Origin: an uncultured Chloroflexia bacterium
Lineage (GTDB): Bacteria; Chloroflexota; Limnocylindria; Limnocylindrales; CSP1-4
NCBI GenBank assembly: GCA_963716815.1
Contig: CAVQUM010000012.1
Span: forward strand, 145,030-209,029
Reading direction: 5' to 3'
DNA length: 64,000 bases
The notes beneath the pieces are model-generated. The model made no database searches. It was given only the letters and a program-made list of their open reading frames with translations, and was not told the DNA's origin. The position numbers were made by a program, and so were the translations under genes. Positions 37,639-63,553 of this stretch are shown here, in pieces; position 1 is the first letter of the stretch; each line of letters begins with the position of its first letter.

Positions 37639-37741
37639 TCGGGGCCATGATGGCGTGACACGCGAGGTGGCACGGTCGGGTGGGACGCTCGCCGTCCGAG
37701 CGTCCACACTGGCACCGAGCACCCGAGCACCCGAGGGCACG

Positions 37742-38920
37742 ATGCAACGATCGAACCAGCGGACGTCCGGTGAACCGGTCCGCTTCATCCTGACCGCCGA
37801 CTGGCAGCTGGGCATGACGCGCCACTTCCTCGAGGGCGAGGCGCAGGCGCGCTTCGGGCAGGCGCGCATCGACGCCATCCGTGCCATCGGCGGGCTCGCT
37901 GCGGAGCAGGATGCGCTCTTCGTGGCTGTCGGTGGCGATGTCTTCGAGACCAACCAGGTAGACCCGCGCACCGTCGGGCGCACGGCGGAGGCGCTGGCCC
38001 AGGTGCCCGTGCCCGTCTTCCTGCTGCCCGGCAACCACGACCCGCTCGATGCCGGCTCGGTCTTCCGCTCACGCACGTTCCTGCGCGACAAGCCGGACCA
38101 CGTGAAGGTGCTGGAGGATTCGCGGCCGCACCAGGTCGCCCCCGGCGTGGAGGTCGTGGGCGCACCCTGGTTCTCCAAGCGACCCCTGCACGACCTGGTG
38201 GCAGAAGCCTGCGCGGGGTTGGAGGCAGTCCCCGGTGTGCAGCGCATCCTGCTGGCCCACGGGGCGGTCGACGAGCTGATGCCCTTCGACAACCCGGCCC
38301 TCATCGGCCTCGCAGGCGTGGAGGCGGCCATCGCCGATGGGCGCATCAGCTTCCTGGGCCTGGGTGACCGCCACTCGACGACCCGCGTCGGGGCGAGCGG
38401 GCGTATCTGGTACCCGGGCACGCCGGAGCCCACCGACTACGACGAGGATGACCCCGGCAACGCCCTGCTCGTGGAGCTCGCCGCCGACGGTACGACCACG
38501 GTCACGCCGCACCACGTGGGCACGTGGAAGTTCATCTACCACTCACGCACGCTCGACGGAGCCGATGCGCTCGACGCGCTTGCGACGTGGCTGGCCGAGC
38601 ACCCGGACAAGGACCGCACGGTGGTGAAGCTGGCTCTCGAGGGCACCATCTCGCTGACCGACAACGCGCGGCTGGGCGATCTGCTCGAGCGCAACCGCCA
38701 GCTCTATGCCGCGATCGAGGTCCACGGCCGTCGCACCGATCTGGTGGTCCGGCCGGATGACGACGACTTCGAGGACCTGCACCTCTCCGGCTTCGCACAG
38801 GCGGCGCTGGACACGCTGCGGGAAGCGGCCGGCGATGACGACGATGAGGCGGAGGTCGCGCGCGAGGCGCTGGCCCTGCTCGTCCGCTTCGCTGCGAGCG
38901 GCGAGGAGGCCGCCCGATGA
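37742..38920 (+). CDS. Mre11/SbcD-like metallophosphoesterase nuclease
   Basis: ADWQLG, GGDVFE, LPGNHDP, LAHG and LGDRHS. Confidence 0.9.
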   Translation: MQRSNQRTSGEPVRFILTADWQLGMTRHFLEGEAQARFGQARIDAIRAIGGLAAEQDALFVAVGGDVFETNQVDPRTVGRTAEALAQVPVPVFLLPGNHDPLDAGSVFRSRTFLRDKPDHVKVLEDSRPHQVAPGVEVVGAPWFSKRPLHDLVAEACAGLEAVPGVQRILLAHGAVDELMPFDNPALIGLAGVEAAIADGRISFLGLGDRHSTTRVGASGRIWYPGTPEPTDYDEDDPGNALLVELAADGTTTVTPHHVGTWKFIYHSRTLDGADALDALATWLAEHPDKDRTVVKLALEGTISLTDNARLGDLLERNRQLYAAIEVHGRRTDLVVRPDDDDFEDLHLSGFAQAALDTLREAAGDDDDEAEVAREALALLVRFAASGEEAAR

Positions 38921-41560
38921 GGATCACGCGCGTCCGCCTCAAGAACTACCGCGGCATCGACGAGCGCGAGATCGAGCTCGAACCCCTCGGTGTGACCGTG
39001 ATCCAGGGTCCCAACGAGATCGGCAAGTCGTCCATCGCGGAGGGGCTCGACCTGCTGCTCGAGCACCTCGACAGCTCGGGCCGGAAGGAGATCAAGGACG
39101 TCCAGCCGGTCGGGCGAGACGTGGGTCCGGAGGTCGAGGTCGACATGGAGACCGGGCCATACGCCTTCACCTACCGCAAGCGCTTCCTGCGCGACCGCGA
39201 GACGGTCCTGCGCATCACCCGGCCGCGCCCGGAGAACCTCGCTGGCCGAGAGGCGCACGAGCGCGTGCAGTCGATGCTCGAGGAGACGCTCGATCGGTCG
39301 CTGTGGAGGGCCCTGCGCATCACGCAGGGTGACAAGGTCGGTGACATCAAGCTCAACGGCATCGGCTCGCTCTCTGCGGCGCTGGACGCAGCGGCCGGCA
39401 CTACGCCGGTCGGCGATGCGGAGACCTCGCTCTACGACCGCGCTCGCGAGGAGTACCTGAAGTACTGGACCGACACGGGCCGGGCCAAGGGTGAGGCCGG
39501 CGACCTGCGGAAGGAGGTCGAGGCGCAGCAGGTCCTCGGTGGATGAGATCGAGGCGGCGCTGCGGGCGCTCGAGGACGATGTCGAGAGCGTGGCCCGGCT
39601 CAGCGCTGAGCGCGAGAGCCTGGGAGAGCAGCGTGCCCAGAACGAAGAGCTGGCCCAAGAGCTACGCGGGGCCTGGCGCAAGGTCGAGGGCATCCAGAAG
39701 CAGGTGGAGACCGCGGAGGCTCGCCTGGAGACCGCACGCCTGGCGACCGAGCAGGCAAGCGCAGCCGTCAAGGCCCGCGCTGCGCTCGTGGCCAGGGTTC
39801 AGGCAGACCAGGCCGAGCGGAAGCGGTGGCGCGAAGCGAAGGAGCGGTCGGCGCCGGCGCTGAGGTCGAGCCTGGAGCGGGCCGAGGCGGCCGGGACCGC
39901 CCTTGCGGCTGCGACCGAGGCGCGGGCGGCGTCGGAACGGGCCGCGACCCTGCTGCGCAACGACATCGAACACCTGCGGGACCAGGCCGCCATCGCGGCC
40001 CTGCGCGACCAGCGCCAACGGTTGCGCGAGGCCAGCGCTGGCCTGGCGCAGGCGGAAGCCGTGCTCGCGGCCAACAAGGTGGACGACGATGCGCTGGAGG
40101 CGGTCCAAGCGTCGAGCATCGTGCTGCAGACCGCGCAGGCGCGGCTGGAGGCCGGCTCCCCGTCGGTGGCTATCGAGTCGCTGGGCGCCGATCGCATCGA
40201 GGTCGATGGTGAAGCCGTGGAGCTGGAACCCGGTGCCACCGAGGAGCGTCCAGTCATCGGGCAGCTCCGCGTGGAGGTGCCTGGTTCGGTGCGTTTGGAG
40301 GTCAGCGCGGGCGCCGATGGCGAGGAGCTGAAGCGCGCGTTGGCTGGGGCAGCGGCAGCGTTCGCCCAGGCTTGCGAAGCGGCCGGTGTCGACGACCTGG
40401 CCCAGGCACAGGCGGCGGCGGTGGCGCGGAGAGACGCGGTGACCGCGCGGGACGCCCACCGCCGCACGATCACGTCGATCCTCGATCATCTCGATCTTGA
40501 GTCCGCCGACGAGCTCGATCCGCGCATCAAGGTCACCGGGCAGCGCGTCGAGGAGTACGCGCACGCGCGTCCCGCGGAGCGCGCGCTGCCCGTGGACCTG
40601 GATACCGCCGTAGCTGCGGTCAGGCCGGCCGACGAGACGCTGGAGGCTGCGCGGGCAGCGGAGGAGCAGGCTCGCGCGGAGGACGAGGCCGCGCGCGGGC
40701 AGCTGGCCAAGTTCGAGACTGCCGCCACGGAGGTCGACGTGCGGCTGAACGTCGCCGGGGAGGCCCTGGCTGCGAGCGAGACGGCCCTGGCCCAGGCACG
40801 CCAGGCTGCATCAGACGAGGCGCAGGCGGAGCGGCAGGCGGAGGCGGAGAAGGCCGAGGGCGCGGCTGACGCCGCCGTCAAGGAGGCGCGAGCCACGCTG
40901 GAGGCGGAGGGTCCGGAGGCGCTGAAGGCGCGGCTGGACAACGCAGAGGCCGTGCTGGCCCGCTCCAGCGGGGATCTGCGTGACGTGGAGGACCAGTTGC
41001 TGGCGGTGCGGACCCGCCTGGCCGACCGCCAGGAGGAGGGCCTCTCGGAGCGGCGCGACCAGGCGGTCGTGGACCTGGGAGTGGCCGGACGTGAGCTGGA
41101 GACCTACCAGCGCCGGGCAGCCGCGCGCAAGCTGCTGTACGAGACGCTCAAGGCCGCGCGGGATGAGGCCCACCGCGCCTACATCGGCCCGCTGCGAGAG
41201 AGCATCGAGCGGCTCGGCCGCGTGGTCTACGGCGAGTCGTTCGGGGTGGAGCTGAGCGACGACCTGCGCATCGCGGACCGCACGCTCGACGGCGAGACCG
41301 TGCCCTTCGAGAGCCTGAGCGTCGGCACCAAGGAGCAGCTGGGCGTCATCGCCCGTCTGGCTTGCGCCGTCATCGTCGCCGACGACGAGGGCGCGCCCCT
41401 CATCCTCGACGACACCCTCGGCTTCAGTGACCCGGTCCGGCTCGAGGCGATGGGCGCGGTGCTCGGCCTCGCCGGCAGCTCCTGCCAGGTCATCGCCCTC
41501 ACCTGCTACCCCGACCGCTACCGCCACGTCGGCGCTGCCACCATCCGTCGACTGGGGTAG
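38917..41560 (+). CDS. Rad50/SbcC-like (YhaN-type) coiled-coil ATPase (frameshift ~39530)
   Basis: Walker A GPNEIGKS, long coiled coil, signature LSVGTKEQ and Walker B LILDD..GFSD. Confidence 0.88.
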
Positions 41561-53300: not shown

Positions 53301-54128
53301 CTAGGCCCGCGTCGGCCCGACCGAGTCCACGCCCAACGACTCTATCGACGCGCCGACCACGCGCGCGACCGTCTCGGCCACCGCGGTGAAGGCCGGCAGC
53401 TTGTCTCCGCTGGCCTCGTCCATGTAGAGCCCGCGACGGACCTCGATCATGACCGAGCGCACGCGCGGATCGCGGCCGTAGTAGCCCGTGGGTACGAACG
53501 AGCCCGCGAATGGAACGTCGCGCGCGACCTGCAGCCCGACCTCGGCGAACCCCGCTGCCAGCGCGGCGGCCAGCTCCGGCGGCGTGTGAGTCTCGTCGCT
53601 GCCGATGCAGATGTCCGGTCGGTCGGGCGTCTGGTCGATCTCCGAGCGCAGCGGCGCCGTGGGGAAGGAATGGCAGTCGATGAGCGTGCAACCGCGGAAC
53701 TCGTCCAGCACCTCGCCCACGAGCGTATCGAGCGCTGCATGGTACGGCCGATACAGCTCCGCCACCCGCCGCTCGCGCAGCTCGATCGAGGCCTCGCGCA
53801 GCAGTTGCAGCTGTGAGCCCAGCCAGTAGACGACGCCCTGGCCGCGGGCAGCCGCGGCTTCGACCGAGTCATCGAGGAAGCGTTCGGGGTCGAAGACCAG
53901 GCGCGAAAGCCGGTTCACGAACATCGTCGCGCCCAGCGCCCGCAGACCGCCAAAGAGCTCGTCGGTATACCAGTCGGTCAGGTGCAGCAACTCATCGGCC
54001 AGTTCACGGTGGGAGATGAGCAGCTCGGCCCGCACCTCGTCGGGGACCACGGTCGACGCATGCGGCACATGGGCGACCAGCGGGCCACGCGGTCCGGGTG
54101 GCGCGCGCACTTCGACCACTGCCGGCAT
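53301..54128 (-). CDS. N-formylglutamate amidohydrolase family protein
   Basis: HVPHAS, TDWYTD, SRLVFDPERF, YRPYH, IDCHSFP, PFAG and SVMIEVRR.LY. Confidence 0.9.
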   Translation of the reverse strand: MPAVVEVRAPPGPRGPLVAHVPHASTVVPDEVRAELLISHRELADELLHLTDWYTDELFGGLRALGATMFVNRLSRLVFDPERFLDDSVEAAAARGQGVVYWLGSQLQLLREASIELRERRVAELYRPYHAALDTLVGEVLDEFRGCTLIDCHSFPTAPLRSEIDQTPDRPDICIGSDETHTPPELAAALAAGFAEVGLQVARDVPFAGSFVPTGYYGRDPRVRSVMIEVRRGLYMDEASGDKLPAFTAVAETVARVVGASIESLGVDSVGPTRA

Positions 54129-54130
54129 CG

Positions 54131-55018
54131 CTACGTTGCGGACTTCGCCGGGTACTTCTTGCGCAATGCGATGATGGCCTTCTCCACCAGTTCGATGGCG
54201 TTGTCGATGTTGTGCGAGAGGGCGACCATGTCTTCCACGCTGCCCACGAGGGTCTTCACCGGGTGCATGACCTCGTTGCGCAACTCCCCCAGTGGCCTGA
54301 TCATCGAGTTCCACTTGGGCACGTCGTAGCTGCCCAGCTCCGCCCGCAGCGCGCGATCCTTCTCGAAGACGCGCAGCAAGTGCTTGAAGTTGAGGTAGGA
54401 GACGACGTCGTCATGGCCGGAACCGGCGCGATCGCGTGACATGCGCTCGTTGAGCTCCTCGGTGTCGCGACTGCCGAGATGGGCCACGAGGTTCGACTGG
54501 TTGGTCCCGTAGCGCCAGCGGATGAGGTCGGCGAGGGCGATCTCAAGGCCAGCCAGCACGAGGTAGTAGTAGGCCCGTGCCGGCTGCTTGTTGAAGTCCC
54601 AGATGGTGACGATGCCGGTGACCTCGCGGCCCTCGAGCACGAAGACGATGCGTTGCTCGGCGATCCAGCCCATGACGTCGGCGATGGGCGTGTCGCCGCT
54701 GATGATGGCGCCGCCTGCGAGCGAGTGGGTCACGGTTCGGATGGGCTGGTCGGCCTCGGCGCGTCCCAGTTGCGTGCGCTTGATGTAGCCCACCACGCGC
54801 CCTTTGGACGTTACGGGCGCGTTGTCCCAGCGATTGGCCTGCATCGCCTGGAGCACGTTGCCGGCCTTGGCGTAGAGGTCGAACGTCGGCGCCCGCTCCA
54901 TGTTCAGCTGGATGTGGCGCGCCCGCACGCCCTGGCCCAGGTCGAGGTGCGGGACGAGGTTCTCCCAGCTGCGCGAGCGCGTGGGCATGGGCCTGGGGCC
55001 CCTGCGCTCGATGCTCAT
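54131..55018 (-). CDS. CBS-domain pair fused to Swt1-like HEPN domain (putative ligand-gated RNase)
   Basis: CBS-like NAPV...GRVVGYI and FVLEGREVTGIVT..D; helical C-terminus with LEIAL, YLNF..L and the RxxxxH motif LRNEVMHP (54263-54280). Confidence 0.75.
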   Translation of the reverse strand: MSIERRGPRPMPTRSRSWENLVPHLDLGQGVRARHIQLNMERAPTFDLYAKAGNVLQAMQANRWDNAPVTSKGRVVGYIKRTQLGRAEADQPIRTVTHSLAGGAIISGDTPIADVMGWIAEQRIVFVLEGREVTGIVTIWDFNKQPARAYYYLVLAGLEIALADLIRWRYGTNQSNLVAHLGSRDTEELNERMSRDRAGSGHDDVVSYLNFKHLLRVFEKDRALRAELGSYDVPKWNSMIRPLGELRNEVMHPVKTLVGSVEDMVALSHNIDNAIELVEKAIIALRKKYPAKSAT

Positions 55019-55118
55019 GCGTCGTCGGCGTGGCGGGTCATGAGGAAGCAGCGTGAGCGGCAGATGAGGTCGTTGAGCCAGGCTCCGGGCATCGTGATCT
55101 CCTGTGCGTGGCCGGAAC

Positions 55119-55145
55119 TGTGCCACACAGGTGGCACATGCAGGG
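55119..55145. promoter_or_regulatory. Palindromic operator copy 1: TGTGCCAC-N4-GTGGCACA-T-GCAGGG
   Basis: Perfect 8-bp inverted repeat; near-identical to 58752-58779. Confidence 0.65.
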
Positions 55146-55148
55146 CAG

Positions 55149-55385
55149 ATGATCGAAACGCGCGAGAGAGACGAGGCGGTCTCTCTCGCCGCCACTATCG
55201 AGAGCACCCATGAGATCCGGCTCGACGAAGGTGCGGCAACCTGACCGGCGGCGTTCGCGCTGACCGCCGCGATCGCGTCGTTCGCCGTGCAGCTCGCCAT
55301 CGTGGGCGCCATCCTTGGCTACCTCACCGGTATCCCCTGGTCGGTCTGGTTCCGGGTCCGCCACAAGTGCTGGCCGGAGGTTTGA
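55149..55385 (+). pseudogene. Small membrane-protein ORF interrupted by in-frame TGA
   Basis: MIETRER...GAAT*PAAFALTAAIASFAVQLAIVGAILGYLTGIPW...; hydrophobic helix after the TGA at 55242. Confidence 0.35.
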
Positions 55386-55395
55386 AGGAGGGCAC

Positions 55396-55966
55396 ATGCG
55401 CTACCTGACCCGGGTGCTCCCCCTCGTCCTGGTGGCGTTGGTGGCAGCGCCCGCTGCGGCCGTGTCGGTCGAGGCACCCACGCCACCCGCCGACGCGGAA
55501 CTGGCGCTGGTCGTCTCGGTCACCGACGGCGATACCATCCGCGTCGACCGGGTCGGTGGCGGCTCGGAGCCGGTGCGCTACATCGGCATCGACACACCCG
55601 AGACGGTCCACCCGGACCAGCCGGAGGAACCGTGGGGAGCGGAGGCCTCGGCTGCCAACGAGGCGCTGGTGGCGGACCGACTGGTACTGCTCGAGCGCGA
55701 TGTGAGCGACACCGATCGTTACGACCGCCTGCTGCGCTACGTGTGGGTCGAGGAGCCCGACGGCTGGGTGATGGTGAACGGCGAGCTCGTGGCCCAGGGC
55801 CTCGCAGAGGTGCGGGCCTACGAGCCCGACACCCGCCACCACGATTGGTTCAGCCAGCTCGAGGACGAGGCCATCGGAGGCGGAGCGGGGCATGTGGGGC
55901 CCCATGCCACAGGCGGAGCCCGACAGCCTGCTGGAGGACATCCTGGACCTGTTCGGCTGGGGTTGA
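55396..55966 (+). CDS. Secreted thermonuclease (SNase-like; frameshift ~55875)
   Basis: Signal peptide; DGDTI, VRYIGIDTPE, DRY.RLLRYV and N.ELV..GLA. Confidence 0.9.
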
Positions 55967-56050
55967 AGGCCGCCCACGGTTGACCGAGGGCGGCTTCACC
56001 CGCACACTGACGGCCGACGCCGGGGGGCAGAGGAGTAGACACCGGCGCCC

Positions 56051-57699
56051 ATGGCCGACCGACCTGACACACACCGGGACCAGGAAGCTGCGCGCGCTGA
56101 GACCGCCGCGGACATCGAGCAGCTTCGCCGGCGGCTGGCTGCGGCGGAGCACTTTCCCGACGAGAACCCCAACCCCGTGCTGCGCATGGATGCTGAGGGC
56201 GTGCTGCTCTACGCCAACCCCGCGAGCAGCGAGTTGGTCCGGGACCTCGGGCTGCGCGTGGGGCAGCCGCTACCCGAGGATGTGCGCGAGCCGCTGCGCG
56301 AGGTGCTCGCGGCCACCGACGGCATGGCCGAGGTCGGGGTCGGGCGACGGACCTTCTGCCTCAAGCCGGTGGCCTCATCCGAGTTCGGCTTCGTCAACAT
56401 CTACGCTCTCGACGTCAGTGCCGCGCGTGCGGTCGAGCGCTTCCCGGACCGCAATCCCAGCCCGGTCATGCGCGTGTCCCTTGCCGGCGTGCTGCTCTAC
56501 GCGAATGCCGCGAGCGCGCCGATCGTGTCTGCCCTCGACTTGGCCACCGATCGGCCCCTGCCGGCACGACTGTGGGCGGACCTGCAGGCTGCTGAGTCAG
56601 CGGATGAGGCCGAGAAGGTGCAGGTCCAGGGTGACGGCCGCTGGTACGAGCTGAGCTGCGTGGTCATCCCTGAGATGGGCTTCGCCAACGTCTACGGCAC
56701 CGACGTGACCGCGCTGCGGGCGCTGCGGCGATTCCCCGCAGCAGAACCCCAACCCGGTGATCCGCGTCACCCACGAGGGCGCGCTGCTGTTCGCCAATCC
56801 CGCGAGCGGCGACATCGTCGACCATCTGGGACTGGTCGAGGGTGGGACGGTGCCGGCGGGCCTGATGGAGCCGATCCGGCAGGGCATCGACGCGGGGCAG
56901 TGCTGCTTCGAGCTCCAGACCCGTGAACGCCTCTACCGCATCACCGCCGTGGCCGAGTTCGAGTTCGGCTTCATCAACGTCTACGCCACCGATATCACCG
57001 CCGCGCGCCAGGTGGAGGCCGCCCACGCCGAGAACGAGAAGCTGCTGCTCAACATCCTGCCGGCGCCCATCGCGCAGCGGCTGCGCGCGGGCGAGAAGGT
57101 CATCGCCGACCGCCACGAGGACCTGTCGCTGCTCTTCGCCGACATCGTGGGCTTCACGCAGATGTCCGCGGACCTGCCGCCCGACCGGGTCGTCGACCTG
57201 CTCGACGATCTCTTCCGTCACCTCGATGACCTCGTCGACGAGTATGAGCTGGAGAAGATCAAGACCATCGGCGACGCCTACATGGTGGTCGGCGGCCTGC
57301 CGCCCCGGACCGAGGACCACCTCGCGCGCGTGGCCTCGATGGCGCTCGACCTCAACGAAACCCTCGAGCGTCGCGCGGACGCCGCATCCCATCCGCATGC
57401 GCATCGGGCTGCACGCCGGGCCGGCCGTGGCCGGGGTCATCGGCGCGCGCAAGTTCATCTACGACGTCTGGGGTGACACGGTCAACACCGCCAGCCGCCT
57501 CGAGGCCTTCGGCGTGCCCGAGCGCATCCAGGTGACCGACGTGGTCCAGCAACGCCTGGCCGACCGCTTCGTGTTCGAGCCGCGGGGCACGGTCGAGCTC
57601 AAGGGCATGGGGCCCACGCGCACCTGGTTCCTGCAACGACGCAAGGCACGGGTGGCGATGACCGTGTCCTCTCCCTCCGCGCGGCTGGCGGGAGCGTGA
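56051..57699 (+). CDS. Class III adenylate cyclase with three N-terminal PAS-like repeats (frameshifts ~56740, ~57390)
   Basis: Three FP..NP.PV.R....G.LL.AN.AS repeats; LFADIVGFT, EKIKTIGDAYM and YDVWGDTVNTASRLE (K and D indicate ATP specificity). Confidence 0.88.
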
Positions 57700-57711
57700 G
57701 CGGAGGTAGAC

Positions 57712-58513
57712 ATGGGCGATGAGCGTGTCGAGCGCATCGACGAGCTGGTGGAGCGCTTCTCGGCGGGGGACGCTGAGGCGGTCGCGCAGCTGGTGGCGCC
57801 GGAGTACTTCACCTACGCGCCGGGCCCCGACGAGCCCTCGGCCAGCGCGGTCTTCGCCCGCTTCGGCGCGGAGCTGCGGGCGGCAGCGCCCGACCTGCGC
57901 CTCGAGATCGTCGGCCTGCGCGACGCCGGTGACGGACTGCTCACGGGCGAGGCCATCGTGAGCGGCACCTGGACCGCCGAGCTCTGGGGCGCACCACCCG
58001 ACGGTCAGCGACACGACGTTCCGCATCCCGGTGCGCATCCGCGCCATCGGCGAGCGCTTCGCCTTCGAGCTCGGGCTGGAGACGCCCGAGGCCTTGGCCG
58101 TGCTGCGCTCGCTCGGCCTGGTCAACCCGCCCGACCAGATGCACCTGCCGCCGCCGCACGCGGTGGTCATCGACGACCTGCTGCTGAAGGTGCTCTTCAC
58201 CGGCCAGGTCGCCGACAAGCCCTGTGCGCATCTCGGCAACGTCGAGGTCGTGGGCACCGACGCGGTCACCTGTGACGACTGCGCTCCTGATGCCATCTGG
58301 CCGGCGCTGCGCATGTGCCTGACCTGCGGCCACGTCGGCTGCTGCGATACCTCCACGGAGAAGCACGCCAAGGCGCACTGGGAGGACACCGGCCATCCGC
58401 TGATGCGTTCGATCCGCATGGCCGAGGGCTGGATCTGGTGCTACGAGGACAACGCGCTGTTCGGGAAGCGCACGCTCGAGCGCATCGCCGACCGGCTCGG
58501 CGGGACCGTCTGA
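57712..58513 (+). CDS. SnoaL-like (ester cyclase) domain fused to UBP-type zinc finger (frameshift ~58020)
   Basis: SnoaL-like N-terminus (APDL..EI, GTWT..LWGAPP.G); C-terminus C.H, CDDC, LRMCLTCGHVGCCD and H...HW..TGHP. Confidence 0.72.
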
Positions 58514-58737
58514 TGTACATGGTCCAGCAGCGGGTCACGACCGCTGTGCGCGATGGCTACCGCAACGCCGATGCACGCGAGCTCGAGCAGGCGCTGGCCG
58601 GGGCCGGGGCGACGAGAGCGTGGCTGCGCGGGCTGCACCTGGACGACGACGTACGTGCGTCGCTCGACGAGCCCGTCGCGGCCGTGGAAGAGGCGCTCGC
58701 GGAGTGCCTGCGGAGGTGTCGCCGAAGCACGGCTTGA
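58513..58737 (+). CDS. Small hypothetical protein
   Basis: 74-aa ORF translationally coupled to the previous stop (TGATG). Confidence 0.4.
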   Translation: MYMVQQRVTTAVRDGYRNADARELEQALAGAGATRAWLRGLHLDDDVRASLDEPVAAVEEALAECLRRCRRSTA

Positions 58738-58751
58738 GCACCGCGGCGATC

Positions 58752-58779
58752 TGTGCCACACAAGGTGGCACAGGCAGGG
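58752..58779. promoter_or_regulatory. Palindromic operator copy 2: TGTGCCAC-N5-GTGGCACA-G-GCAGGG
   Basis: Lies just upstream of a candidate -10 CACGGT (58782) and ATG 58794. Confidence 0.65.
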
Positions 58780-58793
58780 TCCACGGTGTGGGC

Positions 58794-59786
58794 ATGACGA
58801 CTCGCTCCGCCGATCCCATCGGCACCCTCATCGACTCGGTCAAGCCACTCGTGACCATGGAGTGCGACGGCCTGGTGGTCATCGCGCTCGCCAGCGACCT
58901 GCCCTCGGGCGTGCCTGCCTACCTGACCTTCGATGAAGCCGCCGCCACGGACGCGGTCGACGTCCACGAGCTCGGCGCCGGCAGCGTCCCCACCGTCGAG
59001 GTCGAGACGGCAGACACACCGGTCGTCATCTTCGGTGGCGACACCATCGTCGGCGGCATGCAGAACCGCATCGTCAACGCCACCATCTGGCTCACGCCGC
59101 GGAAGAAGACGCAGATCCCGGTGACCTGCTTGGAGGCCGGCCGCTGGGACCGCTCCGGCGGTGTGCGCTTCGCATCGGGCCCCAAGGCGGACCTGCACAT
59201 GCGCCAGATGCTGAACACGCAAGTGCATGCCAGTGCCCGCGGGGCGGCCATGGACCACGATGCGCCGGCGCCCACGCGCTATGCGGCGGACCAGGGCGAG
59301 GTCTGGAACGAGGTCGAGCGCAGGCACCGGCGTGCCGCGAGCTCATCACGGACCGGCGCGCTCCACGACTTGTATGCACGAGAGGCATCGGACGTGGCGG
59401 CTCTCGAACGCGCCTTTCCGTACCCGGACGGAGCCACCGGCGCGGCCTTCGCCATCGGTGGCCGCCTCGTCGCCCTCGAGCTCTTCGACCGCCCCGAGAC
59501 CGCACGGGTGCTGTGGGCCCGGGTGATCGAAGGCGCCGTCCGGGCCCACCTCGACCACCGTCGCCTGGTCGTCGCCGGAACGACGAAGCCACCGCGCCAC
59601 CGCTACCCCGACCGCGATGCGTTGGTACGTATGCTGCGCCGTGTGAAGCGCGCTCAGGACGGAGCACTCAGGTCGCCTGCGGTGGGCGAGGGGAGTGACC
59701 TGCGCTTCGAGACCGAGCGCATCACCGGCTCGGCCCTGCTACGCGAGGACCAGGTCATCCACGCGGAGGTGCACCGTGTCGCTTGA
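58794..59786 (+). CDS. ARPP-1 (DUF6569)-like protein
   Basis: YLTFDEA, V.ELG.GSVP.V, GD.IVGGMQNR.VN, IPV.CLEAGRW, DQGEVW..V and G.AF.IGG.L..LELF. Confidence 0.75.
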   Translation: MTTRSADPIGTLIDSVKPLVTMECDGLVVIALASDLPSGVPAYLTFDEAAATDAVDVHELGAGSVPTVEVETADTPVVIFGGDTIVGGMQNRIVNATIWLTPRKKTQIPVTCLEAGRWDRSGGVRFASGPKADLHMRQMLNTQVHASARGAAMDHDAPAPTRYAADQGEVWNEVERRHRRAASSSRTGALHDLYAREASDVAALERAFPYPDGATGAAFAIGGRLVALELFDRPETARVLWARVIEGAVRAHLDHRRLVVAGTTKPPRHRYPDRDALVRMLRRVKRAQDGALRSPAVGEGSDLRFETERITGSALLREDQVIHAEVHRVA

Positions 59787-59973
59787 GATGGAGTTCACCG
59801 AGCCCTGCCACCGCTGCGGGACGCCCCTCGGGAACGATCCCGACGATGACCCGGACGGTGGCGTGGACGGTCTGCCCATGTGCGGGGAGTGTGTGCGCCA
59901 CCGTGACGAGGCAGCAGACTTCGAGGCCATGGACATGCAGGACGGCGAGCTCGACGGTGTCATCGAGTTCTAG
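59776..59973 (+). CDS. Acidic zinc-ribbon microprotein
   Basis: GGAGG RBS plus GTG; CHRC...CGEC with a D-rich linker; 65 aa. Confidence 0.6.
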   Translation: MSLEMEFTEPCHRCGTPLGNDPDDDPDGGVDGLPMCGECVRHRDEAADFEAMDMQDGELDGVIEF

Positions 59974-59982
59974 CCGGCCGGG

Positions 59983-62900
59983 TCAGCCCTTCGGTGCGCT
60001 CTGTCGGCTCGGGCAGACGCGCCGGTAGTCGCACCAGTCGCAGCCACGCCACCGGGTCATGGTCGCGGTGAAGTCGCCGCGGCGCATGCTCATGGCGGTG
60101 TCGATGAGCTTGGCCTCATGTGCTGCGAGCTGCTCGTCGGACCGGGTGGTGGAGCGGGCGGTGTCCGTCTCGGCAAAGTAGAGCGTCAGCTTGCTCGCGG
60201 CCGGGAGCACCTCGCCGGCATCGTCGGTGACCGCACCCCGGGCCATGGCCAGCGCGTAGGTCGAGAGCTGGTCGTCCTTGGCCACGTCCGCCTGGGTCTT
60301 GGTGCGGCCGGTCTTGTAGTCGATGATCTCGATCGAGCCATCCGCATGGCGGTCGATGCGGTCGATGACGCCGTTGACGCGGATCGGCTCACCGTCGTCG
60401 GGTGCCGCTAGCTCGAGGGTGAACGGGCGCTCCAGCCCGACAGCCTCGGCCGCTGACTTCAGCTCGCGTTCGTAGAAGGCGCGCAGGGCCGCGGTCGAGC
60501 GCTTCTCGTAGGCGCCGGCCTCGGTCTCGTCTCCGAAGGACGAACGGTCGAAGTGCTCTTCGAAGGAGGCCTGCAGCCGGGTGAAGTCGGGCGCCGGCGT
60601 GCCGGCAGCCCTGGCTGCGCGCGCCTCGTTGACGAAATCCTCGAAGGCGCTGTGCACCATCGTGCCGAACTCGAAGTATCCCTTCCGCTCGATCGAGGGG
60701 ATGCGATACAGCTTCTCGAACGCGTAGCGCAGGTGGCACTGCTGATAGACCCAGAACTGGGAGTGGCTGAAGGCATACGGCAGCGGCGCCAGCTTGAGCA
60801 GCTCCTCGCCCGCGGGGCCGTGTGTGGCGAGCACGCGCAGGGTCAGCGGGTCCACGCCGTGCGCGCGTTGTTCAGCAGCGGCATCCGCGGCGTCGAGAGC
60901 CACGGTCACGAGCGCGGCGATGACGGCCTCGCGTGCTTCCTCGTCGGCCCGGTCCAACTGCTCGAGCGTGCCCATGAGCTCGACCGCCTGGCGCCGCAGC
61001 GCATAGCGCCGCTCAGAAGGCTCCGGCACCGGCATCAGCTTCTCGAGCACGGCGGTCGGGTCGGGCGTGGGCGGCTCCGGCGCCAAATCACGTCGCACCG
61101 CGATCACGTCCTTGGGCGCGCTCGCGGATGCTTCGTCCTCGGCATCGCCGGCCAGCTGCGGCGCGACCTCGCTGATGAAGGGGCTGGGGCGTGCGCTCCC
61201 GGTCTTCTTGTCCAGCGTGGTCAGGAACAACCGGTCGCGGGCACGCGTCATGGCCACGAAGAAGAGCCGCCGTTCCTCGTCCTCGGCATGCCCGGGCGGC
61301 GGCTCCTGCTTGAGCAGCTCCAACGGCAGCAACTGGTTCTCGGCGCGCGTGTCCGGGAAGACGCGGCTGACGATGCGGGGCACCAGGACCACTGGCCACT
61401 CGAGGCCCTTGGCCTGGTAGATGGTCATCAGCTGCACGCCGTCAGCGCCGGTCGCGGCGGCGGTCTCGATCTTCGAGGTCACCACCGGCCTCCTCGAAGA
61501 GGTCCACGTAGTCGATGAAGTCGCGCAGGCTGTGGCGACGGTGAGCCGCCTGGTAGTCGGCCGCGAAGCGCATGAAGCGGGCGATGTTGAGCACGCGCTG
61601 GTGGGCCTCGGGCGTGCCGCTCGCGACGAGGTCATGCACGAGGCTCGTGCGCACCACGAACTCCTCTGTCAGCGACGCCGGCCCGTCACGCCAGGCGCGC
61701 GGGACGAGGTCCTCGATGACACCGAACAGGCGCTCCAGCTTGGCCCGCAAGGCTGCGTCGAACGGTTCGGGCGGCCCCACTTCCGCCTCGCTTCCGCCGA
61801 CCTCGGCTGGCTGGGCCTCTGACGGCACCGCGTGCATCTGTTCGAGCAGCTCGCGCGCCGCCTGCAGCATCGCCCGCCTGTCCCACTCGGCCCGGCGTCG
61901 GAGCTCCATGATCTCGCCCGCGTCGAAGCGCCACGGCCCGGCTGTCAGCAAGCGGGTGAAGCTGACCGAGTCGGCCGGGTCGGCCAGGACGCGCAGGGCC
62001 GCCTCGAGGTCGCGGACCTCGGGTTGGACGAAGAGCCCGGTGGCGCCGATGACCGAGTAGGGGATGTTCGCCCGTGCCAGCCGGTCGATGATCTCCAGCC
62101 GATGGGCGTGCCGCCGGTAGAGCACCGCGATGTCACGCCAGCGACGCGGCTCAGGCAGGGCCTCGTAGGCGCCACGGATCCGCTCGACGATGGCCTCGGC
62201 CTCATCCTGGGCGTCGGTCGCGATGACGACCTCGACCTGGGCACCCTCCGCTCGCGTCGGTGTCAGCGGCGTCTCCACCTTGAGCCGGGCGCTGTTGTGC
62301 TCGATGACGCGGTTGGCGGCAGCGATGATGTGCGCCGCGGAGCGCCGGTTCTCGATCAGGGGCACGCTCGCGACCGCCACGGCCGGCCGCGCCGGATCGA
62401 ACGTGGGTGCGGACCCGAAGCGCTCCTGGAAGCGCTCGAAGGCGGCGTACGAGGCGCCACGGAAGCGGTAGATGGACTGGTCGTCGTCACCGACCACGAC
62501 CACGTTGTCGGGCTTGTCCGGGCCCCGGCCGACCAGCTCGAGCAACTGGATCTGGGCCATGTTGGCGTCCTGGAACTCGTCCACGAGGACATGCCGGAAC
62601 TGCCCCTGGTAGCGCAGGGCCAGGTTCGGCCGCTCCAGGAGCAATCCGATGGCGCGCGCCATCTGCTCACCGAAGTCGAGCTGCCCGCGTCGCGTCAGTT
62701 CCTCCTGGTAGAGCCGGTAGACCAGTGACTCCTCCTCCAGCCGCAGCACCTCGAGCGCTTCGGCATCGCGGGTATACGTGGGCTTAAGCGCTCGTGCCAG
62801 CTCGGCCTGCTCGGGCGAGAGGCGCCCCCATGCGGTGGCCTTGCCGGTCCCGTCGGCGCGGCGCCGAGCCTCGCGGTCAGCCGTCTTGGCGGCCTGTTCC

Positions 62901-63553
62901 TCACCGTGACGAAGCAGGTCCCCGCGGACGTCTCTGATGACGTCGAGCTCAGCCTCGCTGCGCACAGTGCGCAAGTCCTCGATCGCGGCAGCCCACGAGC
63001 CCGGCCCATGACCCCGCTCGAACGCGGCCCGCCGGCTGGCGGCGTAGGCCGCGTACTCGGCCGGCGTGACCAGCTCGTCCTTGGCCCGCGAGATGAACTC
63101 GGCGAAGTCGCCGAACGTGTCCATCGCGTTCCAGGTCAGGTCGTAGTAGAGCAAGTCGCGCATCTGCGGTTGCAGATCGCGCAGCAGCAGTCGCTGACCG
63201 ACGCCGTCGAGCAGGTCCCCGTCGCGCGAGACCCTCGCTTCCGCGCGGTGCTCTCGCAGGAGGCGATAGCCGAAGCTGTGGAAGTTGTGCACCCACAGCC
63301 GGCTGGCAGCCTCGATGCCCAGCGCATCCTCGAAGCGCTCGACCAACTCGCCTGCCGCGCGCACGTTGTAGGTCAGCACGAGCATGTTCTCTGGGGCCAG
63401 GTCGGGGTCGCTCGCAAGCAGGTGCTTCACGCGCTCGACGACGACGGTCGTCTTGCCCGTGCCGGCGCCGGCCAGCACCATCAGCGGGCCGTCGCCCCAT
63501 TCCACGGCCTGTCGCTGCGCGGGTGAGAGGTCGAAGCCGGTGGTCGCGCTCAT
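59983..63553 (-). CDS. UvrD/AddA/AdnAB-like helicase fused to PD-(D/E)XK nuclease with Fe-S cysteines (frameshift ~61490)
   Basis: AGAGTGKT, VDEFQD, VGDDDQSIY.FRGA, MTIYQAKGLEW and EERRLFFVAMTRA; nuclease G.IDRID...IIDYKTG; C..C.Y..VCP. Confidence 0.9.

Follow-up and report, generated by a model that had tools for sequence, protein, structure and literature searches.

A palindromic element at constant distance from a -10-like hexamer as a probable part of DNA-repair promoters in an uncultured Chloroflexota lineage

In mycobacteria, PafBC promoters combine a -10 hexamer with a PafBC-specific '-26 element' at -23 to -28 and have no -35 box, a mode of activation called 'sigma adaptation' (PMC8635444); their consensus is tTGTCRgtg-8nt-TAnnnT (PMC5656591). 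DriD of Caulobacter crescentus, a homodimeric WYL activator of a damage response independent of SOS, uses sites that overlap the -35 position, keep an identical distance to the -10 in all targets and likewise lack a -35 (PMC13004042, PMC9186387). DdaA, a WYL activator of the Moraxellaceae, recognizes CGWCA-N5-TGWCG and governs repair genes together with anti-phage genes (PMC12392091). Here, we analyzed a palindromic element that occurs in two near-identical copies in a stretch of 64,000 nucleotides, referred to as the window, from an uncultured Chloroflexia bacterium of the order Limnocylindrales (GCA_963716815.1, contig CAVQUM010000012.1, positions 145,030 to 209,029). The element is very probably a regulator-dependent promoter element of a DNA-repair regulon. 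The metagenome-assembled genome (MAG), designated G000, has a size of 3.58 Mb in 24 contigs, a GC content of 69% and a completeness of 78%; C-numbers denote its contigs and other G-numbers the genomes of relatives.

The palindrome, written as CTGTGCCACAC(A)AGGTGGCACA-n-GCAGGG, starts at 55118 and 58751 and has no other exact match in the MAG. Copy 1 reads CTGTGCCACACAGGTGGCACATGCAGGG and copy 2 CTGTGCCACACAAGGTGGCACAGGCAGGG, the differences being one additional A in the loop and one T/G substitution, just as the first-pass annotation of the window had described. The palindromic core TGTGCCAC-N3-6-GTGGCACA was found twice in the window and not once in 100 shuffles, and these two are the only exact matches in the whole assembly. 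In agreement with that annotation, the gene map places copy 1 between the divergent gene of a CBS-HEPN protein (start 55093, minus strand) and genes for a small reading frame and a staphylococcal nuclease (SNase)-like protein. Copy 2 begins 15 nucleotides (nt) past a stop codon, and 21 nt separate its end from the ATG of the ARPP-1 gene at 58794. The regulator sites and the hexamers following them are located as follows:

55120..55138, plus strand: regulator site of copy 1, GTGCCAC-ACAG-GTGGCAC-A, the form with a 4-nt spacer
55148..55153, plus strand: -10-like hexamer GATGAT of copy 1, 9 nt past the site
58753..58772, plus strand: regulator site of copy 2, GTGCCAC-ACAAG-GTGGCAC-A, the form with a 5-nt spacer
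58782..58787, plus strand: -10-like hexamer CACGGT of copy 2, 9 nt past the site and 6 nt ahead of the ARPP-1 ATG

Both copies follow the consensus GTGmCAC-nnnAG-sTGkCAC-R-N9-nAnnnT with an AG-ended spacer of 4 or 5 nt; for the dyad, the family-wide consensus is GTGACA-C-GCTAG-C-TGTCAC. Alignment of 14 strict-motif instances from nine family genomes on the right half-site revealed an A at +11 nt and a T at +15 nt, each in 13 of the 14 instances, at positions outside the strict search pattern and against a background GC content of ~70%. These two bases define a -10-like hexamer, nAnnnT, exactly 9 nt past the element. When G000 was searched without a -10 constraint, seven dyads were accompanied by a correctly spaced nAnnnT, each in one orientation only, and four poorer dyad loci (C9, C10, C12:73877 and C19) had no such hexamer. 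The element is directional. Within the 9 nt between site and -10, copies 1 and 2 share six bases (GCAGGG), which are not kept at other sites.

The dyad has a length of 19-20 bp and spans about -41 to -22, the usual place of a -35 box. No -35-like hexamer was found 17±1 nt ahead of the -10 at the 149 genus sites listed; the bases at this position lie inside the dyad and read CGCTAG, not TTGACA-like. In addition, the -10 hexamers of the genus sites mostly have no first T. Lacking a -35 and mostly also the first T of the -10, the dyad promoters look activator-dependent. Ordinary promoters of G000, in contrast, possess a -35; the lexA promoter (C14, about 246340-246400) has the structure TTGACA-N17-TACCGT, with an SOS box, TCGAACAGACGTTCGA, between the hexamers. 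Start codons lie 6-8 nt past the -10 at the genes for ARPP-1, a helicase-nuclease, a RecB-like nuclease (G030 among them), SbcD in G012 and a protein of ~430 amino acids (aa; one of 421 aa), indicating leaderless mRNAs. The leaderless ARPP-1 start proposed earlier fits this geometry.

A conserved upstream element at a fixed distance from a conserved hexamer is also found in extracytoplasmic function (ECF)-type promoters, and the whole conserved block might be read by an alternative sigma factor without any separate DNA-binding regulator. We regard this as very unlikely: the two halves lie 9-10 nt (proximal) and 21-23 nt (distal) away from the -10, whereas a -35 of the sigma-70 family lies 16-18 nt away, the dyad symmetry suggests a dimer, and the downstream hexamer carries the housekeeping-type A(2) and T(6). 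Two further promoter classes were tried and rejected. For a sigma-54 promoter (TGGCAC-N5-TTGCW), the 78%-complete MAG yielded no rpoN or Sigma54_DBD match, and most instances lack the -12 GC. For a MerR-type promoter, there is no -35-like hexamer 19-20 bp ahead of the -10; the only TTGACA-like one, the GTGACA of the left half-site, is 23 bp away.

To describe the dyad itself, we compared the listed genus sites. Of the 149 sites, 124 have a spacer of 5 nt and the remaining 25 one of 4 nt. The last two bases of the 5-nt spacers are A (122 of 124) and G (116 of 124), although AG lay outside the search pattern. The 4-nt form, which also occurs at the SNase promoter of G026, thus reflects natural variation and not, as had been considered for the extra A, a homopolymer error. 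The central bases of the two half-sites are complementary in 79 of the 149 sites, with the A/G combination occurring 39 times. This independent variation of the half-sites favors recognition by a protein and disfavors a nucleic-acid hairpin, either as terminator of the operon before copy 2 or as an RNA or DNA structural signal. Such a hairpin would agree with the predicted RNA folds of the copies (-13.5 and -17.1 kcal/mol, z = -2.5 and -4.6) and with the stop codon shortly before copy 2. In contrast, pairing of the central arm bases does not appear to be selected, neither copy has a U tract, there is nothing for copy 1 to terminate in its divergent promoter region, and the predicted transcription start is downstream of the element. 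An Rfam scan of 54900-59000 resulted only in sub-threshold noise without any family match. Altogether, we consider the hairpin highly improbable.

A fuzzy palindrome search of G000 (up to three mismatches), performed without a -10 constraint, gave no informative result. Further sites were exposed by adding the -10 constraint and relaxing the half-sites: the relaxed pattern, GTGNCAC-N4/5-STGNCAC-N11-A-N3-T, resulted in seven matches in G000 and none for the control, which was the same pattern reversed. One of these sites is a third promoter in the window:

37655..37689, plus strand: third regulon promoter of the window, GTGACAC-GCGAG-GTGGCAC-G-N9-GACGCT
37742..41560, plus strand: genes for an SbcD-like phosphoesterase (PF00149) and an SbcC/Rad50-like ATPase behind this promoter, the ATPase gene being split by a frameshift

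Outside the window, sites precede the operon of a small open reading frame (ORF), recA and recX (C1:110179), a 1004-aa PcrA/UvrD-like helicase ending in a Cas4-like nuclease, a small Cys-rich protein with a small membrane protein behind it (C3:296329), and a 680-aa nuclease-like protein adjoining a Dcm-like methylase. An eighth site with one mismatch is found ahead of a Zn-ribbon mini-protein. The promoter type mostly drives DNA-repair genes, and DNA repair is the core of the regulon.

The relaxed pattern was then applied to relatives, where totals are the sums of per-genome counts. Within the genus, we counted 166 matches compared to four for the reversed control, and all 46 genomes had a match. 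The 93 genomes of the family (f1) contained about 177 matches (control: 3) and the 28 genomes of the sister family, 1.1 Mb in size, 13 matches (control: 5); in about 190 genomes from the rest of the phylum, matches about equaled the control. The regulon is thus not limited to the two copies but comprises at least seven promoters in G000 and about 170 in the genus, with a DNA-repair core. The strict pattern GTGCCACACA-N1-3-TGGCACA was present in 8 of 401 family genomes and absent from its reversed control. Over 185,579 species it gave 104 matches, about chance level by our own estimate; the only coherent group among them was the dozen or so from this Chloroflexota family (uncultured Chloroflexia bacterium MFD... 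/ Candidatus Limnocylindrales bacterium). The strict 20-mer carries no meaning outside the family.

Genes downstream of strict instances include ARPP-1 orthologues, a TM0106-type RecB-like nuclease, an MrfA-like helicase and an SNF2-like gene, among others. Across genera, the recurrent downstream genes encode the helicase-nuclease, the TM0106 nuclease, the MrfA-like helicase (DEAD and MZB domains) and SbcD, and furthermore the SNase (G026), the ~430-aa protein, a ~90-aa protein and Zn-ribbon mini-proteins. The recA-linked site is orthologously kept in at least 11 genomes of the genus. Footprinting upstream of ARPP-1, as the first-pass annotation had proposed, revealed a site directly upstream of all five orthologues found (G000, G009, G012, G013 and G226; 48-73% identity, at least two genera), and in G009 and G013 the ATG again lies about 22 nt past the site. 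The SNase orthologue of G026 is located behind the same type of site in the 4-nt-spacer form, GTGCCACACGGGTGGCAC.

This distribution bears on two other explanations. A local duplication might have left the two copies behind, or they might mark the ends of a mobile cassette, in either case without any regulatory role. Consistent with this, GCAGGG is common to these two copies, they bracket an accessory segment of 3.6 kb, and the CBS-HEPN gene beside copy 1 is absent at the syntenic G026 site. Yet the similarity between the copies ends within ~33 nt and the sequence around them is unrelated, which rules them out as ends of a larger duplication; both are positioned at orthologously conserved promoters (SNase in G026, ARPP-1 in four other genomes), and the element also occurs at unlinked DNA-repair genes. 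We therefore consider a duplication extremely improbable. The second explanation would make the dyad the LexA (SOS) box of this lineage. Like the LexA box of the Gram-positive type (CGAAC-N4-GTTCG), it is palindromic and precedes DNA-repair genes, and the regulon includes recA and other classic SOS genes. However, its sequence differs, LexA is a repressor with variable position relative to the promoter, and the genuine SOS box of G000 is a separate, canonical one in the TTGACA/TACCGT promoter of lexA, unlike the dyad. Moreover, the MrfA-like helicase gene of G413 has a CGAACGGGTGTTCG box downstream of one of the dyads, showing that two different signals coexist. The probability of this explanation is practically nil.

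Compared with the systems introduced above, and by analogy with them, we regard the element as a lineage-specific variant of WYL-activator-type damage-response promoters: the distance to the -10 is constant, a -35 is lacking, the repair-gene regulon includes recA, and the genome encodes a helix-turn-helix (HTH)-WYL-WCX protein. As in PafBC promoters, there is no -35, the distance between the regulator element and a TAnnnT-type -10 is fixed, and the T of TGTC(R) in PafBC, or of the proximal half TG(T/G)CA(C) here, is located 16 nt upstream of the -10. Both regulons are centered on recA and helicase-nucleases, many PafBC transcripts are leaderless as is predicted for many of the transcripts here, and in both cases an HTH-WYL-WCX protein is present and LexA coexists with its own separate box. 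In contrast to the one asymmetric -26 element read by PafBC, the element described here is a dyad of 19-20 bp with two half-sites, and instead of a PafB/PafC heterodimer there is one WYL gene, whose product is presumably a homodimer. Furthermore, the lineage belongs to the Chloroflexota and not to the Actinomycetota, and most of its -10 hexamers have no first T. The strict PafBC RecA-NDp motif (tTGTCRgtg-N8-TAnnnT) was rejected as a description of the sites, since they agree with it only in the TG-C-A within the proximal half and in the offset of 16 nt.

With DriD, the element shares the palindromic site over the -35 position, the constant -10 distance and the missing -35. The half-sites differ (CGAC-N7-GTCG in DriD, GTGmCA-N6/7-TGkCAC here), and unlike in the DriD system, the regulon is larger and repair-centered and there is no sign of autoregulation. 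DdaA resembles the system in having a palindromic motif upstream of recA, other repair genes and defense-type genes; here, the ARPP-1 and SNase-cyclase genes, both of the defense-island type, stand behind the same promoter type as the repair genes. Motif and phylum differ, and LexA, which DdaA replaced in Moraxellaceae, is retained. Binding and activation by DdaA have been shown experimentally, whereas the link proposed here is a prediction from sequence. A literature search found no paper describing such a promoter in Chloroflexota.

G000 encodes one HTH-WYL-WCX protein (contig C4:213606-214595). Among relatives of solved structure, PafBC and DriD chains match it best, with DriD aligned over the full length (E = 1.6e-8). 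Orthologues are present in 117 of the 121 genomes of the order, and the recognition helix, RT(I/V/A)YRDL, is invariant. The regulator of the dyad promoters is probably an activator, and the chances that this activator is the single WYL protein of the genome, as the analogy suggests, are about even. The first-pass annotation spoke of an operator with no known cognate regulator. The term probably understates the element, as fixed -10 spacing without a -35 suggests an activator site, and by analogy the WYL-domain proteins of the PafBC/DriD kind offer a plausible class of regulator.

In the activator-promoter model, which we moderately favor as a whole, each copy would be the upstream half of a specialized promoter. 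A dimeric activator would bind the dyad and recruit the RNA polymerase holoenzyme to promoters that polymerase alone cannot use. Copy 1 would fire rightwards into an operon of small membrane protein, SNase and PAS-cyclase, with a predicted transcription start near 55160, and copy 2 into ARPP-1, giving a leaderless mRNA. Transcription is expected to start about 7 nt past nAnnnT, which for ARPP-1 would be the A of the ATG at 58794. By analogy, the trigger could be DNA damage or single-stranded DNA. More tentatively, the homodimeric WYL protein could be the master activator of a LexA-independent damage regulon, with the proximal half of its dyad at the position of the PafBC '-26', and would then also switch on accessory genes of the defense-island type.

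Several observations speak against this model. There is no dyad site upstream of the WYL gene in G000; among the relatives, the only match adjoining a WYL gene (G110) falls within the coding sequence before it. The sister family, in which the motif stays close to background, conserves the WYL protein just as well, and a phylogenetic profile of gene versus motif gave no information since almost every genome of the order has the gene. The protein is tied to the motif by analogy. The motif is dyad-symmetric in contrast to the asymmetric PafBC element, whose consensus it matches only in TG-C-A, and the half-sites are separated by either N4 or N5, a 1-bp difference that would be unusual if the dimer is rigid. 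The recA upstream regions of 30 other genera contained no dyad, so that recA has the site only in this genus. Finally, a dimer site centered near -32 is also a classic repressor position. A non-LexA repressor (e.g. XRE- or DdrO-like) could occupy the dyad over the -35 region of intrinsically active promoters, block sigma region 4 and be removed after stress. DNA-repair regulons are often repressor-controlled, and one genus site is found ahead of a gene for an XRE-like protein (L155). On the other hand, nearly all sites keep their distance to the -10 to the exact base pair whereas operators usually drift in position, there is no -35 box, a -10 mostly without first T should give poor basal activity, and no candidate repressor gene travels with the sites. 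Therefore, we consider a repressor unlikely and prefer the activator.

An isolated orphan operator thus becomes a defined regulon of a widespread uncultured soil lineage, with a consensus, a geometry, a gene list and one candidate regulator. If the model is true, WYL/PafBC-type promoter logic extends to the Chloroflexota in a dyad form, and sigma-adaptation-like activation would exist outside the Actinomycetota with two half-sites, which bears on the generality of sigma adaptation. For ARPP-1, a domain without known role, the damage-type promoter at all five family orthologues found is a first functional hint. ARPP-1 and the SNase/PAS-cyclase operon would then be DNA-damage-induced effectors, and a nuclease/cyclic-nucleotide operon under the same control as recA echoes the coupling of damage response and anti-phage functions in Moraxellaceae.

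To place the two copies in their gene context, the window was mapped with Pfam profiles and a third-position GC frame analysis:

53301-54314, minus strand: FGase gene (Pfam/GC frame map)
54131-55093, minus strand: CBS-domain gene (DS-11-like CBS-HEPN, weak DS-11-like match), divergent from copy 1
55162..55189, plus strand: perfect GC-rich hairpin of 11 bp, GCGAGAGAGAC / GTCTCTCTCGC, in the predicted 5' leader of copy 1 (-24 kcal/mol, z = -2.3)
55245..55385, plus strand: small membrane-protein reading frame, which may join the ATG at 55211 via an assembly indel
55397..55983, plus strand: SNase-like (staphylococcal nuclease) gene (PF00565, E = 5.5e-19) with a strong Shine-Dalgarno sequence
56051..57699, plus strand: PAS-cyclase gene with three PAS-like repeats and an adenylate/guanylate cyclase domain, in three frames with two apparent frameshifts
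57712..58737, plus strand: SnoaL-like, zf-UBP and unassigned reading frames in shifting frames, where the putative copy-1 operon ends
58794..59786, plus strand: ARPP-1 domain protein gene (PF20208, E = 1.7e-63), leaderless mRNA predicted
59739-59963, minus strand: small acidic Zn-ribbon protein, …CHRCG…LPLCGECVRNRDE…DGELDG…W
59983-63553, minus strand: UvrD/PD-(D/E)XK helicase-nuclease, split (Pfam/GC frame map)

The regulon had originally been proposed to link the CBS-HEPN RNase, the SNase and ARPP-1. While the SNase operon and ARPP-1 are indeed linked by the element, membership of the CBS-HEPN RNase could not be demonstrated: the -10 of copy 1 faces away from the RNase gene, and the reverse orientation has no nAnnnT. 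Footprinting upstream of the two CBS-HEPN orthologues revealed no intact site, with only a decayed left half-site abutting the SNase start in G006 and no adjoining site in G436. In G026, the SNase gene and its site adjoin the FGase gene with no CBS-HEPN gene in between (L184, G026:C2:322000-334000). Apparently, the CBS-HEPN gene was inserted next to an SNase promoter that was already there. These findings correct the idea that this RNase shares the control by the dyad promoter.

The leader hairpin at 55162-55189 is not present at the orthologous locus of G026. The small membrane protein behind copy 1 and a 68-aa membrane protein on contig C3 are 48% identical over 42 aa; the ORF of the latter follows a 119-aa Cys-rich ORF downstream of the site at C3:296329-296362. 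These paralogues just behind two regulon promoters possibly represent a family of damage-induced membrane peptides. The gene of the acidic Zn-ribbon protein is convergent to ARPP-1 in G000, G009 and G013 and has its own dyad promoter in G004. In the PAS-cyclase gene, the Guanylate_cyc profile is split over two frames (3-91 / 97-182). Frameshifts also split other conserved genes of G000, namely those for the SbcC-like ATPase (38917-41560), the UvrD/PD-(D/E)XK protein and RecA (C1:109016-109802, two frames). Since even recA is split, most of these breaks are probably indel errors of the MAG and the broken genes not pseudogenes.

Some of the pattern matches deserve a closer look. A recurrent 4-nt-spacer group, GTGTCACGnnGCTGTCACC...GAGACT, accounts for about 11 of the 149 genus sites listed (e.g. 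G438:C4:270087, G009:C6:262763 and G026:C5:49293). It is a direct repeat ahead of an OmpR-type response-regulator gene that matches the pattern by accident and probably belongs to a separate autoregulated system. Another Chloroflexota family includes a 1.7-Mb genome with three pattern matches clustered within 18 kb (G566:C1:1230624-1248264), one of them a good one (GTGACACTCAAGCTGTCACA...TAGAGT); the motif may occur sporadically outside the family. At several genes for the ~90-aa protein, the dyad is followed downstream by TTGACA and then by a TCGAAC/ATCGAA-like sequence, a possible half of an SOS box, which suggests a dual control of these genes.

A second conserved promoter motif was observed at recA in the 30 other genera (L124-L153). 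In this motif, GTGAAG/GTGCAG is repeated two or three times with a period of 11-12 nt, the last repeat being 10 nt ahead of a TAnnnT. The motif is located upstream of a conserved basic ORF of ~55 aa and recA. In G000, recA has both arrangements in tandem, with the GTGAAG/GTGCAG repeats downstream of the dyad promoter, about 40-75 nt before the small basic ORF.

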